From: Candidatus Saccharimonadota bacterium
GTDB lineage: Bacteria; Patescibacteriota; Saccharimonadia; Saccharimonadales; UBA10212
Direction of reading: 5' to 3'
DNA length: 64,000 bases
NCBI GenBank assembly: GCA_016176605.1
Contig: JACOWW010000002.1
Coordinates: forward strand, 41,432-105,431
The position numbers and the translations under genes are program-made. A model generated the notes under the pieces. It did no database searches, had not been told where the DNA came from, and worked only from the letters and a program-made list of their open reading frames with translations. Shown here piece by piece: positions 36,275-41,182 of this stretch (positions are counted from its first letter, which is position 1; the number at the start of each line of letters is the position of its first letter).

Positions 36275-36306
36275 TTATTCCAATATTCTGCAGAATATTG
36301 GAATAA
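36275..36306. promoter_or_regulatory. perfect 32-bp palindrome, candidate operator
   Basis: TTATTCCAATATTCTG|CAGAATATTGGAATAA; 22 bp of it recur at 36574-36595. Confidence 0.7.
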
Positions 36307-36325: not shown

Positions 36326-36595
36326 ATGATGAATGCTAAGTACCTGGAAAAAATAGTTAAGGGTTTTGCTAATCACCACCGCATAAGGATTCTTGAATTG
36401 GTAGCTAAGGAGCCCAACCTGACACTTCTTGATATTACCGATAAGCTTAAAATTAACTTTAGAACTGCTAGCGAACATACTAGAAAATTAGTGGGAGCAG
36501 GGCTCTTGTTGAAAAAATATAAAGGTACGTCAGTTGAGCATAGGATTACTGACAGAGGCAAACTAATTCTCAAATTCTGCAGAATATTGGAATAA
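36326..36595 (+). CDS. ArsR-family winged-helix regulator
   Basis: KGFANHHRIRIL..TASEHTRKLVGAGLL. Confidence 0.85.
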   Translation: MMNAKYLEKIVKGFANHHRIRILELVAKEPNLTLLDITDKLKINFRTASEHTRKLVGAGLLLKKYKGTSVEHRITDRGKLILKFCRILE

Positions 36596-36609
36596 GGACG
36601 GAGTTTATT

Positions 36610-36771
36610 ATGGGGGAGATTGCTATTTTGGCGGCGGGGTGTTTCTGGGGCGATCGGCGGCTTCGCCTTATGAGACAAACTACGTTTTTCTCATCGCGCC
36701 GGGCACGAAATGAATTCGGTGCTCGGGCTGCTCTTTTCCTAGTTTGTAGTAAACTGGACATCGGTGTATGA
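36610..36771 (+). pseudogene. truncated alternative msrA 5' end fused to a family B element
   Basis: MGEIAILAAGCFWG, then read-through of the element; TGA overlaps the msrA ATG. Confidence 0.75.
36657..36735 (+). repeat. family B structured element (short form)
   Basis: GCGGCTTCGCCTTAT..TTTCTCATCGCGCCGGGC..GCTCGGGYTGCTCTT, also at 39449-39529. Confidence 0.85.
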
Positions 36772-37283
36772 AAGATATAGCTATATTCGCAGCTGGGTGT
36801 TTCTGGGGAGTCCAGTATTATTTCGACCAAGTGCCGGGCGTGCTGGAGACAGAAACGGGCTATACGGGTGGTAATGTCGAAAATCCAACCTACGAACAAG
36901 TTTGCGGACATAAAACGGGACATGCTGAGGCCGTCAGAATTGTTTTCGACCCAAGGAAAGTCAGTTACGAAAAGTTGCTGAGGCATTTTTTTCGGATGCA
37001 CGACCCGACTCAGCTAAATAGGCAAGGTCCGGATATTGGCGACCAGTACCGCTCGGCTATTTTTTACACTGACGAAGCACAAAAAAAGACTGCCCAAATA
37101 ATAATTAACGAGTTGAACGAGCAGAAATTTAAGAACAAAATAGTTACGACGCTAGAACCCGCCTTCGCTGAAGCTTCGGTGGACAGGCCGGCCGGTAGGT
37201 GGTGGCCGGCCGAAGAGTACCACCAAAAATATACCCAAAAGACAGGTATGGGTGCCTGTCACACTCCGTACCAACCAATCTAG
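36768..37283 (+). CDS. msrA: peptide methionine sulfoxide reductase A
   Basis: AAGCFWG, GHAEAV, QGPDIGDQYRS, AEEYHQKY; 30-bp palindromic in-frame insert at 37158-37187. Confidence 0.96.
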   Translation: MKDIAIFAAGCFWGVQYYFDQVPGVLETETGYTGGNVENPTYEQVCGHKTGHAEAVRIVFDPRKVSYEKLLRHFFRMHDPTQLNRQGPDIGDQYRSAIFYTDEAQKKTAQIIINELNEQKFKNKIVTTLEPAFAEASVDRPAGRWWPAEEYHQKYTQKTGMGACHTPYQPI

Positions 37284-37353
37284 TCGGCTTGCCCAGCTCT
37301 AATTCCTGAAGCGCACATGTCGGGGGAATATCCCTATTTGGCGCATCAAGATA

Positions 37354-37932
37354 TTAGGGCTGGGCGGCGAATAGTCCGGTTAGAATTGTTTGGTCTAATA
37401 TGTGGCCCTGCATGGCGCTCTTAAGCTGGTCACGATTAGTATCACTTTTTAACCCCAAAGACTTATCTAGTGCATAAAGTTCAAAAATATAGTGGTGTGT
37501 ACCGGTACCGGCCGGCGGGCAGGGGCCCATATAACCAGCTCGGCCGGCGCTGTTGATGCCTTGGACAGTCCCGGCTGGCACGCTGTTGACGGCGATAGTT
37601 TCAGCAGAAGCAGAAATGTCCCACGCCGTCCAGTGGACAAAATCTCCACCAACAGCGTCAGGATCATGGATGATCAGCGCTAAACTTTTCGCACCATCCG
37701 GCACGTCCACAATATTAAGCGGCGGATTGACATTTTGGCCCTTACAGGTGTACTGGACAGGAATGGCTGCGCCGTCACGAAAAACCTGACTGAATAACTT
37801 TAAGCTAGATTTCGGATTGTTAGTTTGGGTTTCCATAGTTTTTGGTGCCTCCTTTTTAGCAAATAACAATACTGTGGCGGCCGCTACAACCAGCAAGCCG
37901 ATAATAATCAACCTAAGCGACTTTGGCCGCAT
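37354..37932 (-). CDS. YbhB/YbcL (PEBP) family protein
   Basis: DPDA..FVHW, YMGPCPP..HHYIFELYALD. Confidence 0.93.
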   Translation of the reverse strand: MRPKSLRLIIIGLLVVAAATVLLFAKKEAPKTMETQTNNPKSSLKLFSQVFRDGAAIPVQYTCKGQNVNPPLNIVDVPDGAKSLALIIHDPDAVGGDFVHWTAWDISASAETIAVNSVPAGTVQGINSAGRAGYMGPCPPAGTGTHHYIFELYALDKSLGLKSDTNRDQLKSAMQGHILDQTILTGLFAAQP

Positions 37933-37981
37933 AAATAAATAATACCTGTTATAGCCAATCTATGTCTGTAAAAAATTCAGG

Positions 37982-38638
37982 TTATTTTTTCTTCTTTTTA
38001 GTATAGATTATCAGCCGTCCTTTAATTTGCTCCAGTATCCCCCGTTTTTCCAACTGCTTGACAAGAGTGGTGGTAGTTTCGCGGGTGACACCGGACAAGT
38101 CGGCAATTTCTTGGTGCGACAATTTAATTTTTAGGCGGTAAGCATTGGGACGGATGCGCTCGCCGAACTTAGAAATGAAGTAAGGCAGCAGCATAACTAC
38201 CTTATTGATGGCTTTTTTGCTCTTCATAACTTCTAGCTGCTTCATAATGGCTTCGTTGGTGGCCGATACATAAGCCAAATAAACTTTCATACTTTCAGTG
38301 CTGGCCTCAATAATTTCTTTAAAGGTGTCGCGAGACAGAACGCGCATCGTAACATCGGTAAGCGATTGGTAAAAATACTTAACCTTGTAGTTATGCCAAT
38401 CTAATGAGACGGAAAAAGCAATAGGAAAAATATCGCCGGGGCCTAAGAGAAAAATAGTCCGGGTGTCGCCACTGTCTAGTATAGTGTAAGCCTTCACATA
38501 CCCTTCCTTTATGAGGTAAAAATGCGTAAGTTCATCGCCCTCGTAATAAATTAGCTGATTTTTTGGGTATTTCTTGGTGCTAGCTTTAGCAAAGAGCTTT
38601 TCAATCCTTGCCTGATACGTTGATATCTGCTCTGCCAT
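37982..38638 (-). CDS. Crp/Fnr-family transcriptional regulator
   Basis: cNMP-binding fold plus LSHQEIADLSGVTRET HTH. Confidence 0.92.
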   Translation of the reverse strand: MAEQISTYQARIEKLFAKASTKKYPKNQLIYYEGDELTHFYLIKEGYVKAYTILDSGDTRTIFLLGPGDIFPIAFSVSLDWHNYKVKYFYQSLTDVTMRVLSRDTFKEIIEASTESMKVYLAYVSATNEAIMKQLEVMKSKKAINKVVMLLPYFISKFGERIRPNAYRLKIKLSHQEIADLSGVTRETTTTLVKQLEKRGILEQIKGRLIIYTKKKKK

Positions 38639-38775
38639 ATCTTTAGTATTTCATATCCACAGCCCAAACCCAAGCTCTGCCTCCGGGGCGTCTAAGTGTC
38701 GACGGGCTGTGGATATGTATTGATAATTTGCGGAGTGAGGCATATCATGAAGTCATTACTAATTAAGGAGGATCT

Positions 38776-39084
38776 ATGGATCTTGCTAAGGTCAATAGGC
38801 AAATGGTGGAGCAGCTTGTCAGCCTTTTTGTAGTGCTGGCGGAAGCTTTACTAATAGTGCGGGTTGTGCTTCGGTTCTTCAATGGCAATCCGGACGCGAC
38901 GTTCGTGCACTGGGTTTACACCAATACGCAAGTATTGCTTGAGCCGCTGCGCAACGTCTTTACTTCGGTAGACGTGGTTAGCCGTGGCTGGGTGGTAGAC
39001 TATGTCGCCTTGGCTGCGATGGCTTTCTGGGTCGTCGTCGGCTACCTGGTAGTTGGCTTAGCTAGCCGCTGGGTGCGTAAATAG
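38776..39084 (+). CDS. YggT-family membrane protein
   Basis: LLIVRVVLRFF..FVHWVYTNTQVLLEPLR; AAGGAGG SD. Confidence 0.8.
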   Translation: MDLAKVNRQMVEQLVSLFVVLAEALLIVRVVLRFFNGNPDATFVHWVYTNTQVLLEPLRNVFTSVDVVSRGWVVDYVALAAMAFWVVVGYLVVGLASRWVRK

Positions 39085-39118
39085 CCCGATAGTAATAAAT
39101 TAAAACGAAAACAGATTT

Positions 39119-39153
39119 ATCCAGCTCCAGTTTTTAACTGGGGCTGGATTTTT
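39119..39153 (+). terminator. intrinsic terminator
   Basis: ATCCAGCTCCAGTT..AACTGGGGCTGGAT followed by a T-tract. Confidence 0.75.
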
Positions 39154-39167
39154 GTTAGACTAAGCAT

Positions 39168-39263
39168 ATGCAGAATCCGTTTCAAAGCACCGGCATTCTA
39201 ATCCTGGTTATAGCGGCCGCTTTAGCCTTGGTATCCTTGCTGGCTGTCATTCTCGCCCAGTAG
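39168..39263 (+). CDS. 31-aa single-TM small protein
   Basis: MQNPFQSTGILILVIAAALALVSLLAVILAQ; TAGACT -10 box 6 nt upstream. Confidence 0.5.
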   Translation: MQNPFQSTGILILVIAAALALVSLLAVILAQ

Positions 39264-39389
39264 TGAGCTTTCGAGATTATTCGTATACAATGAATATTTA
39301 GTTCGCCGGCAGCGGACTGACTCGAAAGTCTACTACTGGGCTCACTGGCTAGTCTGCCTGCCGGCAGGCAGGCCTGCTAAAATAGGGTG

Positions 39390-39548
39390 ATGGCATATCA
39401 TAGATGGCGCAGTCCACCTTACGAACCTGGGCAAAAAACACCTTATAAGCGGCTTCGCCTTATAAGACACCCCTTTGGGGTTTCTCATCGCGCCGGGCGC
39501 GGAATAAATCCGACGCTCGGGTTGCTCTTCCCGAGGAGCTGCTTGTGA
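39390..39548 (+). pseudogene. truncated alternative 5' end of the nuclease gene fused to a family B element
   Basis: MAYHRWRSPPYEPGQKTPYK versus RKFRTAPYQPGQRVPYK; TGA overlaps GTG 39545. Confidence 0.7.
39449..39529 (+). repeat. family B structured element (short form)
   Basis: Homologous to 36657-36735 with compensatory stem changes. Confidence 0.85.
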
Positions 39549-40336
39549 ATGAGTGGAGAAAATTTAGAACGGCGCCGTACCAACCAGGACAAAGAGTACC
39601 GTACAAGGTTAGTCGGAGCAAAATTGACCTATTTGTGCAGTGCCCACGCTGTTTTTGGCTGGACACAAGGCTTAAAATCAGCAGGCCCAAAGGCCCGCCT
39701 TTTACGCTAAATTCAGCTGTCGATCAGTTGTTAAAACAGGAATTTGATGCACTGCGTAAAACCGGCAAACAACACCACCTACAGGTTGAGTATGACATTG
39801 ACGCTAAACCGGTTGATCATGACAAACTAAATGTTTGGCGGCATAACTTTACAGGGGTTCAGTATCTGCATGAACCGACAAGTCTGCTGGTTTTTGGTGC
39901 TATCGACGATTTGTGGCAAAACTCCAAAGGCGAATACATAGTTTTGGATTATAAGTCTACCTCTAAAGTCGAAAAGATCGATAAGCTCGGCAATGAAAAA
40001 TGGCATGACCAATATCGGCGCCAACTGGCGGTCTATCAATGGCTGCTTAGGCAAAACGGCCTAAAAGTTTCTAATACTGGTTATTGGGTTTATTGCAATG
40101 CCATCAAAAATAACAAAATATTTGATAAAAAACTGGAGTTCGAGCTTACCCTAATTGCTGAGAAAATTGATGACAAATGGGTAGAGCCAACGATTAAAAA
40201 AATCAAAAGCTGCCTGGAAGACGACATCCCCAAAGAGGCCGCCGACTGTGAACACTGCGCTTACGCCAAATCGCGCACTAAACTTACTCTGGAAGCTCTG
40301 CAATCAAAGCCGAAGAAATTATATATCGACACCTAG
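39545..40336 (+). CDS. PD-(D/E)XK nuclease family protein (Cys cluster, AddB/Cas4-like)
   Basis: CPRCFW, GAIDD, VLDYKST, QLAVYQW, CEHC. Confidence 0.88.
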   Translation: MNEWRKFRTAPYQPGQRVPYKVSRSKIDLFVQCPRCFWLDTRLKISRPKGPPFTLNSAVDQLLKQEFDALRKTGKQHHLQVEYDIDAKPVDHDKLNVWRHNFTGVQYLHEPTSLLVFGAIDDLWQNSKGEYIVLDYKSTSKVEKIDKLGNEKWHDQYRRQLAVYQWLLRQNGLKVSNTGYWVYCNAIKNNKIFDKKLEFELTLIAEKIDDKWVEPTIKKIKSCLEDDIPKEAADCEHCAYAKSRTKLTLEALQSKPKKLYIDT

Positions 40337-41182
40337 ATAACTAAATCTCTCTGTAACTAAATCAATTTCCTCTTTTGTCGGTTCAAATGCTTCGAGCGTG
40401 GTTAGTGCACCTATTTTTACAGCATTTTTAAGAACCCTTTGTCTTTTTTCTAATCGCCTTATTGTTTTTGAAGGTCTTATTTCTTCTATTTCTACATCAG
40501 ATTTAAGTACAGATCTTGGGTATTTGAGTTTTTTATCGTTACCTCTGAAGATAATAACGTGAGTTGGATTTTGGGCTGCGACAACCTCAAGGCCATTACT
40601 CATGTGATCCCAATAGGGATGCCCGTTATGGACATGAGGTCTCCAGCCGGCAATTCGGGGCATCCAGGCAGCAGCCTTCAGCGATCCAAATACATCTTCC
40701 CTGGAATTGAAATCACTAAAAATTACCGATTCTTTCGTGACTGCCGATCTCGCAATGACATTGACAGGTATTTCCGAATCCCGCACACCTTCCCATTCTA
40801 TACATGGATCACCGGCTAGGATTTCATCTACGAGGTAATTAATATCAGCAATATTACCTCGAAGAACTCGTCTTAGATTAATAAATTTTGGAGATGGCAC
40901 TTTTTCCAAGAAAACCTTCATCATATCATCGGCTTGTCCAGTAGCTACACACATGGCAATTATCCCCCCGCTGGAAGTACCAGATAGCCTATCGAAAGCT
41001 TTGTGCCGCTGTAGGAAGCAGGTAGTTGCTGCCTCAGCAGCAACTACGATACTACCCATTGCGCCACCTTCAAAGAGAGCAGACACGCTATAGTTGTCTG
41101 TTCTTTGTAGCGGTGAAGAGCCCTCATTAAAGCGTTGATTAATGATTGAAAGGGTTGGATTACTCTCCACATGTTCAGACAT
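40319..41182 (-). CDS. patatin-like phospholipase
   Basis: FEGGAMG, GTSSG nucleophile elbow; AT-rich. Confidence 0.75.
   Translation of the reverse strand: MSEHVESNPTLSIINQRFNEGSSPLQRTDNYSVSALFEGGAMGSIVVAAEAATTCFLQRHKAFDRLSGTSSGGIIAMCVATGQADDMMKVFLEKVPSPKFINLRRVLRGNIADINYLVDEILAGDPCIEWEGVRDSEIPVNVIARSAVTKESVIFSDFNSREDVFGSLKAAAWMPRIAGWRPHVHNGHPYWDHMSNGLEVVAAQNPTHVIIFRGNDKKLKYPRSVLKSDVEIEEIRPSKTIRRLEKRQRVLKNAVKIGALTTLEAFEPTKEEIDLVTERFSYLGVDI

Follow-up and report, generated by a model that had tools for sequence, protein, structure and literature searches.

In a stretch of 64,000 nt from the genome of a Candidatus Saccharimonadota bacterium (the window in what follows; GenBank assembly GCA_016176605.1, contig JACOWW010000002.1, positions 41,432 to 105,431 of the forward strand), two unrelated genes, msrA and a gene for a PD-(D/E)XK nuclease, are each preceded by a diverged copy of their own 5' end and by the same gene-less element of about 85 nt. 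The element belongs to a family of structured repeats lying at gene boundaries of Saccharibacteria-type genomes, and in part of its copies the end of a neighbouring gene, 5' or 3', is found on both sides of it. Judging from the pattern of substitutions, the upstream copy (the stub) and the gene end look like two alleles, each of which evolved as coding sequence, and not like a gene end and its decayed local duplicate; there is in our estimate an even chance that the element and the gene end at its 3' side travel jointly and enter the homologous gene in register. The genome that holds the window (G000; Gnnn and Lnnn are labels of genomes and loci) measures 728 kb and is 89% complete.

At both sites the insert is 158 nt long, without an open reading frame (ORF) of its own, and the two copies align without gaps at a period of 158 nt, with 33 of 42 nt identical in msrA and 24 of 33 nt in the nuclease gene. 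The second copy corresponds in msrA to codons 1-14 (36768-36809), continuous with the gene body, and in the nuclease gene to codons 1-21 (39545-39607), which by their sequence are apparently a diverged, imported N-terminus. The ORF of stub A continues across linker and element to a TGA stop that overlaps the msrA ATG (ATGA), and that of stub B, whose N-terminus sits behind a -10-like box kept in relatives, continues across its element to a TGA overlapping the GTG of the nuclease gene (GTGA); the tail of element B, CCCGAGGAG, provides a Shine-Dalgarno-like GAGGAG 8 nt 5' of this GTG. Differences at codon positions 1/2/3 number 1/1/8 in the msrA pair and 5/9/13 over the 21 codons of the nuclease pair, in which the replacements are conservative. 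ORFs, covariance model and flank scores above control thus bear out the first-pass annotation, which had read from the letters the two duplicated 5' ends, the shared element and stubs that run through it to a 4-nt overlap. Elements A and B are the only two covariance-model matches in the window; position 56166, a pattern match with 3 mismatches only, was rejected as a third copy.

BLAST and a covariance model built on eight copies gave 8 strong copies in G000 (E 2e-22 to 1e-10) together with three weak candidates. The model matched 49 of 61 related genomes, with 1-21 matches per genome; besides G000 these are 33 of 36 genomes of the same family and 15 of 24 from other families of the order. 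In an alignment of 102 copies, fitted to the model, which favours structure, 96.9% of the pair cells are standard-paired and 19 of 21 pairs have compensatory changes; none of 500 shuffles reaches the observed covariation, slid partners pair at 58% or less, and the effect size and the many pair types (at one pair, GC in 48 copies and AU in 45) are beyond what the fitting explains. The exchange of AAAC/GTTT for CCCC/GGGG in one stem, on which the first-pass annotation had founded its claim of covariation, holds family-wide. A G.U pair retained by 96 of 102 copies marks the plus strand of the element as the structured strand. The fold consists of two hairpin domains joined by an invariant CGCGCC, and the tail, CTCTTCC-CGAGG or -GGAGG (CCCGAGG/CCGGAGG), can either base-pair with the second domain's 3' strand (helix 3) or function as ribosome-binding site; a GC-rich 5' linker with 1.5-3.5 hexamer repeats accompanies most copies. 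Single-sequence folds recover the family structure with modest z-scores (-2.0 to -3.2), on both strands; the structure claim rests on covariation.

Besides one viral contig, an 18-nt core pattern matched upwards of 116 genome records from many phyla, and 44 of these loci were put to the covariance model (1 viral, 39 from records titled Patescibacteria, Parcubacteria or other phyla, and 4 Saccharibacteria controls). The element is present in 7 of the 44, namely the 4 controls and records titled Patescibacteria, Parcubacteria and Binatia; by the same model the viral match and the matches in other phyla are due to chance and were rejected as copies. The repeat family is confined to Saccharibacteria-type genomes, strand-specific, and tight at gene boundaries. 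Rfam 15 gave 0 matches at gathering score across the whole window and, at E up to 10 over 36500-39700, three weak matches, none on the element; a scan for promoters and terminators gave 7 promoter-like sites where 5.3 were expected and 7 terminator-like sites where 4.2 were, without any on the element. No description of the family was found in the literature searched, which did not extend to subscription journals and supplements.

Single copies present further features. Two copies, at 256695-256782 and 319578-319665 of contig C7 of G000, are syntenic across genera (L015, L022, L011): the one between rplO and secY is on the opposite strand, its linker directly adjoining the secY ATG, and at the end of a gene for a SpoU-type methyltransferase linker and first hairpin encode the last residues and the stop. 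A palindromic mini-element of about 41 nt is nested in the loop of the second hairpin in two genera (545-595 of L133 from G035 and 545-595 of L163 from G023). In L034 (G020) two copies in the same orientation (447-535 and 1150-1237), about 600 nt apart, flank a stretch resembling part of a ribosomal RNA operon.

Duplication of gene ends recurs outside the window. The set comprised 145 nhmmer matches (the 8 copies of G000 and loci of relatives), of which 5 too near a locus end were removed, leaving 140; the flank score of a copy is the highest local protein similarity obtained when its upstream and downstream flanks, each translated in six frames, are compared, and 556 mismatched flank pairs served as control (mean 29.1, 99th percentile 43.5, maximum 50). 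The control 99th percentile is exceeded by 22 of the 140 copies and the control maximum by 17, with 63 and 66 for the two window sites; the other 118 are without duplication at the protein level, and an earlier run had given duplications in 5 of 30 copies. Case frames were assigned by reading all six frames. N-terminal cases, with the element in the sense of the gene, are msrA (G000, G023), the nuclease gene (G000), DinB (G014), TpiA (G014) and LepA (G053). C-terminal cases, with the gene on the opposite strand, are Fmt (G002, G003), YchF (G013, G016), msrA (G016), LeuRS (G013), a metallopeptidase (G014), an Ala-tRNA-synthetase-like C-terminus (G009, G040), one unnamed gene in three genera (G013, G006, G019; the cases in G006 and G019 score 43, slightly below the cut-off) and two more. 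A search with the stub peptide found the msrA arrangement also in G061 and G030, outside the 140-copy set, bringing the totals to 8 N-terminal cases (two of them outside the set) and 14 C-terminal ones. Further copies with flanking duplications in other genes and genomes, for which the first-pass annotation had proposed to look, are therefore at hand; among 27 other msrA loci and 19 other nuclease loci inspected, none has the element at that place.

The arrangement follows a fixed order, copy 1, linker, element, a spacer of 0-40 nt and copy 2, with copies of 28-70 nt. The period varies from 119 to 170 nt in the other cases, and a constant 158-nt period acting as ruler was discarded on this ground. 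Twenty junction pairs compared by eye have no common motif, which argues against classical site-specific integration. The gene body is continuous with copy 2, at the 3' side of the element, without exception among the 6 N-terminal and 14 C-terminal cases of the set, and likewise in the 2 added msrA cases; for the set this amounts to 20 of 21 duplicated copies. By automatic classification of the 140 copies, the genes on the 3' side present 56 sense starts and 60 antisense ends, and those on the 5' side 69 sense ends and 44 antisense starts. Duplication occurs in 20 of 116 copies with a 3'-side gene and in 1 of 113 with a 5'-side gene (Fisher p 1e-5), and in C-terminal contexts only in 14 of 60 and 0 of 69, respectively.

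This polarity is not predicted by the main rival reading, namely that the element is an ordinary non-autonomous transposable repeat that makes long target-site duplications of variable length (28-70 nt) in place, with two native copies, identical at birth and diverging afterwards, and selection in gene-dense genomes leaving only the gene-sparing insertions. A symmetric target duplication spares the C-terminus in either orientation, hence selection is not a ready explanation of the polarity. Such a process, which we hold to be possible and rather unlikely, would agree with the variable length and missing common junction core, as in target-primed or staggered-cut insertion, with the presence of elements in all four intergenic contexts, with the existence of near-identical pairs and with insertions of different subtypes 3 nt apart at the YchF end.

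The divergence between the copies bears on the same question. Between the two copies of a gene end 0-43% of the sequence differs, and most of the differences are synonymous. A first count over 18 pairs, including some wrong reading frames, gave 50/29/111 differences at codon positions 1/2/3, with proportions of synonymous (pS) and nonsynonymous (pN) differences of 0.52 and 0.15. A recount, with frames picked by the gene body, gave 19/9/43 for 13 C-terminal pairs (162 codons; pS 0.37, pN 0.08) and 8/3/26 for six N-terminal pairs, the mis-framed L124 left out; L089 and L130, which hold 1 difference between them, stood in the wrong frame in this recount. In several pairs the synonymous sites are saturated and the protein is kept, for example in L124 (pS 0.97, pN 0.20) and in the Fmt pair of G003 (pS about 0.8, pN about 0.23). 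Since the C-terminal stubs follow the stop codon and the element, their conservation cannot be due to translation of the gene, and a stub decaying since a local duplication predicts a pN/pS of at least 0.5; the C-terminal ratio of 0.21 therefore speaks against decay and, with pS up to saturation, against duplication in place. The distribution over codon positions supports the view of the first-pass annotation that two alleles stand side by side, which is how the pairs look at the sequence level.

Comparison with element-free relatives suggests which copy is native. Nuclease genes of the same and the sister genus begin MAY.RWR..PYKPGQ..YK behind a conserved -10-like box. The stub of G000 has that start and that box, and 13 of its 20 residues are identical to G004, compared with 8-9 of 20 for the working copy; the two copies differ at 27 of 63 nt, one Arg being CGC in one and AGA in the other, and from codon 22 on the protein is 83-97% identical to G005 over residues 16-75. 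The element-free Fmt allele of G000 shares 40 of 51 nt with the G003 stub and 29 of 51 with the G003 working copy; of the sites at which one of the three sequences departs from the other two, 15 single out the working copy, 4 the stub and 7 the G000 allele. For both serines the stub and G000 use AGC and the working copy of G003 uses TCN, which for the first serine is found also in the working copy of G002. In these two three-way tests the excess of changes falls on the functional copy and not on the stub, contrary to what duplication in place would leave, and this suggests that the upstream stub is the native end and the copy 3' of the element the imported one. The start of the G061 msrA stub overlaps the preceding gene's stop, an arrangement also seen in element-free relatives. 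The proposal of the first-pass annotation that a foreign allele or new 5' end is installed stands in part: one copy is foreign-like in both tests, but the phenomenon is not limited to 5' ends, as the 14 C-terminal cases show, and a recombination mechanism is not demonstrated.

Two observations concern the nuclease locus itself. The relatives start 6-10 nt after a TAnAAT-like box, kept by the G000 stub (39360-39392), a spacing that suggests a leaderless or near-leaderless mRNA. The nuclease body (39608-40336) is mosaic-looking, its first 540 nt or so nearest to G005 of another genus (67-81% nt identity) and its last 150 nt or so nearest to the congeneric G002 (73-77%); at identities of 57-81% a long foreign tract is a mere hint and was not used as evidence.

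Inserts of the msrA type occur in four genera (G000, G023, G061, G030) with the same junction after GCFWG, a linker GATCGG.GGCT.CGCC, the rare AAAC/GTTT helix 2 and the 158-nt period; their spacers are diverged and weakly alike across the four units, and the upstream neighbour is an ArsR gene twice, a deoxyribosyltransferase-like gene once and a tRNA-synthetase-like gene once. The insert is patchy, congeners being without it, and the G030 stub is decayed; the three intact stubs (G000, G023, G061) differ mutually almost only synonymously. These data fit an old structure whose stub may be under selection, and they also fit one unit that may have entered several lineages, each time leaving a fresh native stub in the same register; the second reading also fits the coding-type divergence and the results on the native copy.

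An old structure of this kind would be expected if the element were mainly a cis-acting RNA at gene boundaries, exerting for example translational control or coupling through a switchable Shine-Dalgarno sequence, with N-terminal stubs as selected upstream ORFs and old vertical inheritance. The shared junction and synonymous differences of the three msrA stubs are in line with it, as are the compensatory changes that keep the fold of each copy, the tail that pairs with the helix 3 strand or acts as ribosome-binding site, and the synteny across genera of the copies at rplO-secY and at the SpoU-type methyltransferase. We consider it improbable all the same: the orientation to the neighbours is mixed (37 sense-between-genes versus 28 antisense), an upstream-ORF role is impossible for the C-terminal stubs, the element is patchy within genera (in msrA, G000 has it and G001 and G002 do not; in Fmt, G002 and G003 have it and G000 does not), and no curated RNA family matched. 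A riboswitch or cis leader with fixed sense orientation was rejected, since a sense start lies within about 90 nt of the 3' end in 56 of 140 copies and 60 copies face an opposite-strand gene end.

At N-termini the stub and the gene may still be linked in expression. Seven of the 8 N-terminal stub ORFs stop either on the new start or no more than 7 nt beyond it (ATGA, GTGA, GTGATG, ATGGCTAA), and that of TpiA (L122) stops about 17 nt past it; GGAG or GAGG lies 6-9 nt before the start in several spacers and tails. The sequences thus point to translational coupling, which explains the open stub frames and not the conservation of the stub residues.

How a unit of element and gene end would spread can be proposed only tentatively, at clearly less than an even chance: as a new kind of mobile DNA among Saccharibacteria, the gene-less element of about 85 nt would use a 30-70 nt copy of the neighbouring gene as homing address and depend on host replication and recombination only, so that a foreign allele overwrites the terminus and the native one is left as a stub. 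Movement between lineages, homology-guided placement and the work of host enzymes are the parts that we infer. The mobile unit would consist, 5' to 3', of the GC-rich hexamer linker, the two-hairpin element, a short spacer and the gene-end copy of 28-70 nt; entering an element-free lineage, it would be placed in register at the homologous gene end, where the carried copy would take over as working N- or C-terminus, fused to the body of the resident gene, and the resident end would be displaced to the 5' side of the element as a stub, prone to decay over time. An N-terminal stub would keep the native promoter and start and be read across the element, stopping on the new start codon, and expression of the gene would be kept via translational coupling and the Shine-Dalgarno-like sequence in the element tail. 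Insertion may follow either of two routes: a nascent strand copying the resident end could switch to a small single-stranded or circular copy of the unit, copy it once and return, or short-arm recombination could occur with DNA taken up from a lineage already carrying stub, unit and gene. Stuttered hexamers at the 5' junction would fit a polymerase reaching the end of its template. Saccharibacteria are naturally competent.

Enzymes of known mobile elements were sought in the genomes. Reverse transcriptase (RT; PF00078) has no match in G000 and is found in 16 of 61 genomes without relation to copy number, being missing from copy-rich genomes such as G041, G047, G045 and G022; the Y1 transposase (PF01797) has 0 matches in G000, and TnpB occurs in 1 of 61 genomes. 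For the transposase families searched, these counts also speak against duplication in place by a transposable repeat. The linked recombinase for which the first-pass annotation had advised to search was not found: the single tyrosine recombinase (PF00589) of G000 lies on another contig, C3, the search having left aside serine recombinases, IS91, IS110 and the DDE families. Since G000 is 89% complete, the absence of an enzyme is not proven.

Several points weigh against the joint movement of element and gene end. No responsible enzyme was found among the families searched, and no intermediate, empty-versus-filled polymorphism or transfer event is seen in the assembled contigs. The carried homology is short (28-70 nt) and old pairs are 57-76% identical, a poor substrate for RecA-type recombination. 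The independent insertions at the YchF end, 3 nt apart and of different element subtypes, could reflect target preference and not homing, and the near-identical pairs (33/33, 31/31, 35/36, 32/33 and 37/39 nt) are equally expected from target duplication in place. Pairs were found via protein similarity, which biases pN downwards and hides decayed stubs, and decayed stubs exist (G030, L018). The sole candidate exception to the polarity is a weak ftsA match in L018 (score 48), with stop codons in the stub and opposite polarity. The three-way comparisons completed are two (nuclease in G000, Fmt in G003), and over the last nine codons of the duplicated msrA end of G000 the working copy is slightly nearer to G002 (22 of 27 nt, by eye) than is the stub (19 of 27); this locus, the case off the rule, also has an extra ArsR gene.

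Known systems offer partial parallels. In what PMC3603311 relates of prophages and cryptic elements in E. coli icd, the gene stays whole as the incoming DNA brings a gene end and the native end is left as a duplicate; the incoming, diverged gene-end copy that keeps the target whole is common to both systems, but those elements measure tens of kilobases and use an integrase and one attachment core, whereas here 119-170 nt without genes lie at many targets, at 5' and 3' ends, with no core. The icd prophages, which yield gene-end duplications with synonymous divergence (PMC3603311), are also what could be said for regarding the present loci as scars at the attachment sites of a larger island or phage, driven by an integrase, which brought a replacement gene end and has since disappeared. 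This origin is very improbable: the insert in its full length measures 119-170 nt and is bounded by native sequence to either side, the 85-nt element would be the only remnant at more than 20 independent sites, there is no shared junction core, the one tyrosine recombinase lies on another contig, and the single viral contig matched by the pattern does not hold the element. The relic of an integrative element that the first-pass annotation had offered in second place is, on the length of the insert and its native flanks, likewise unlikely. In displacement of Rhs C-termini (PMC2935791), a fragment sharing a conserved stretch takes over a gene end and the old end is orphaned alongside; there, large toxin tips with new function are exchanged and no structured repeat takes part, whereas here an ordinary allele of the same sequence is concerned and the 85-nt element always lies between the copies. 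Target-repairing prophages and Rhs end displacement are the closest known analogues of the arrangement, and neither, as far as these accounts extend, combines a gene-less structured repeat of 85 nt with polar duplication at many targets.

Short structured non-coding repeats are familiar in reduced genomes, including the Rickettsia palindromic elements, small palindromic repeats, MITEs (miniature inverted-repeat transposable elements) and repetitive extragenic palindromes (REPs), and may lie in reading frames and be translated. To our knowledge, no palindromic-element, MITE or REP family has been described in which gene ends are duplicated in a polar manner and diverge as coding sequence, and the present element differs from these repeats in having a strand-specific fold, no terminal inverted repeats, no short fixed target duplication and no parent insertion sequence or REP-associated (RAYT/Y1) enzyme found. 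Assignment to MITEs was rejected because the ends CCTTATGAGAC... and ...CTCTTCCCGAGG are not mutual inverted copies, the palindromy being internal to two separate hairpins, because the flank duplications are long (28-56+ nt) and vary in length, and because no related transposase was found among the Y1 and TnpB families, the DDE families not having been searched. REPs and REPINs are palindromes of 20-40 bp with a RAYT, against about 85 nt, two unlike hairpins and no PF01797 in G000; a palindrome-associated element derived from IS200/IS605, which would insert beside a fixed target of 4-5 nt and duplicate none of it, is contradicted by the long flank duplications, the missing shared junction bases and the lack of TnpA. 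A diversity-generating retroelement was discarded since G000 has no RT and the changes (T/A, G/C, G/T, C/A) go in both directions and are not adenine-specific, and a group I or II intron since its core takes 200 nt or more, compared with 85 nt, and no Rfam match exists. The attC sites of integrons are single long imperfect hairpins with conserved R and L boxes, served by IntI; the present element, with two adjacent hairpins of high sequence conservation, is unlike them in fold, and the single tyrosine recombinase of G000 may be of the Xer or of the IntI type. Capture of flanks is known from 3' transduction by long interspersed nuclear elements (LINEs), from IS91/ISCR and from Helitrons, which have a fixed 5' end, a variable 3' end with sequence of the previous site and extra or stuttered 5' bases, and need their own RT or HUH enzyme; these elements insert regardless of the flank, whereas here the flank is always beside its homolog in register and RT is missing in G000 and in 45 of 61 genomes. 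Mycobacterial interspersed repetitive units are small intergenic repeats with short ORFs overlapping the stop and start codons of their neighbours; unlike the present family, they are tandem, without a conserved fold and without duplication of a neighbouring gene end.

The assembly is supported at both sites. A Logan contig of run X1 spans 36664-40400 with 0 differences, contigs of X3 and X4 cross stub B, element B and the gene start, and a contig over 36300-36681 crosses the junction of stub A and element in X1, X3 and X4; the three groundwater runs may be the source samples, so that the assemblies are independent and the samples are not. Logan contigs break inside element A, and together with the metagenome origin of the window this is what favours a chimeric assembly of two strains, an artefact to which practically no weight can be given: contigs of three runs cover the stub/element junctions and the whole of site B without differences, and the arrangement is repeated in many other assemblies. 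The chimera that the first-pass annotation had named as able to undo its reading is thus contradicted by independent contigs. No empty-site joint was seen in the assembled contigs of the sequencing runs; one X5 contig skips 333 nt at 36650-36984, an interval whose content is not known, and can be read neither way.

The coordinates of both sites are collected in Table 1.

Table 1. Features of the msrA site (A) and the nuclease site (B), in positions of the window
Feature	Position	Strand	Remarks
ArsR-type winged-helix regulator gene	36326..36595	+	directly 5' of stub A; Pfam HTH_5/HTH_24
Stub A ORF, 53 aa, start MGEIAILAAGCFWG	36610..36771	+	putative displaced msrA N-terminus, 36610-36651
GC-rich linker A, GATCGGCGGCTTCG	36652..36665	+	between stub A and element A
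Element copy A, P2 variant AAAC/GTTT	36666..36748	+	covariance-model match 76.3 bits, E 2.5e-17
Spacer from element A to msrA start	36749..36767	+	
msrA, start MKDIAIFAAGCFWG	36768..37283	+	Pfam PMSR E 2e-63
Stub B ORF, 53 aa	39387..39548	+	putative native nuclease N-terminus, 39390-39449
Linker B, CGGCTTCG	39450..39457	+	
Element copy B	39458..39542	+	covariance-model match 88.4 bits, E 2e-20
PD-(D/E)XK (Cas4-like) nuclease gene	39545..40336	+	Pfam PDDEXK_1 E 3e-13

Other neighbours in the window identified by Pfam are a deoxyribosyltransferase-like gene and genes for PEBP, Crp, YGGT and patatin proteins. The ArsR-type gene is missing at this place in most relatives and present in G023, and the gene order is repeated in L132; in G002 and G001 the msrA start overlaps an upstream deoxyribosyltransferase-like gene instead of the ArsR arrangement. 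A perfect 22-nt palindrome at 36277-36298, 5' of the ArsR-type gene, is likely its operator; a different palindrome occupies the same place in G023, and at 36575-36595, over the last codons and stop of the ArsR-type gene, a 21-nt direct copy repeats the right part of the palindrome and the bases that follow it.

Other small repeats lie in or near the two genes. Inside msrA a stretch of about 35 nt (37158-37192) has about 10x the contig depth of the adjoining sequence and loose ends at either border in each of the four runs, and coincides with a nine-residue insertion (AFAEASVDR-like) missing from msrA orthologs; it is probably another tiny in-frame repeat element. The msrA of G001 (L051) has a 78-nt palindromic insert, in frame, just 3' of the ATG, those of G013 (L046) and G016 (L049) a repeat of about 100 nt before the conserved N-terminus, and those of G015 (L061/L065) and G045 (L060/L066) in-frame inserts near residue 61-66 that split the protein match, so that several mini-elements seem to share msrA as a hot spot. 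Between a 31-codon ORF and stub B, an inverted-repeat element at 39264-39386, with arms like GTGAGCTTTCGAG / CTCGAAAG...GGGCTCAC, has raised depth, and many contigs skip 33-37 nt at 39283-39321; it represents a second small repeat family with length variants.

Whatever the origin of the arrangement, the stubs are liable to be annotated as spurious small proteins or to lead to wrong start codons, the element breaks short-read assemblies, and there is a strong case for curating these repeats as a new family of RNA or DNA structures. If element and gene end do move together, a selfish or semi-selfish element could colonise ultra-small, gene-dense genomes without killing genes, since the gene end comes along, and would continually supply mosaic N- and C-termini and allele replacements across lineages in an uncultured phylum; an insertion addressed by homology, without a dedicated recombinase, would also be a possible tool in the few transformable Saccharibacteria.

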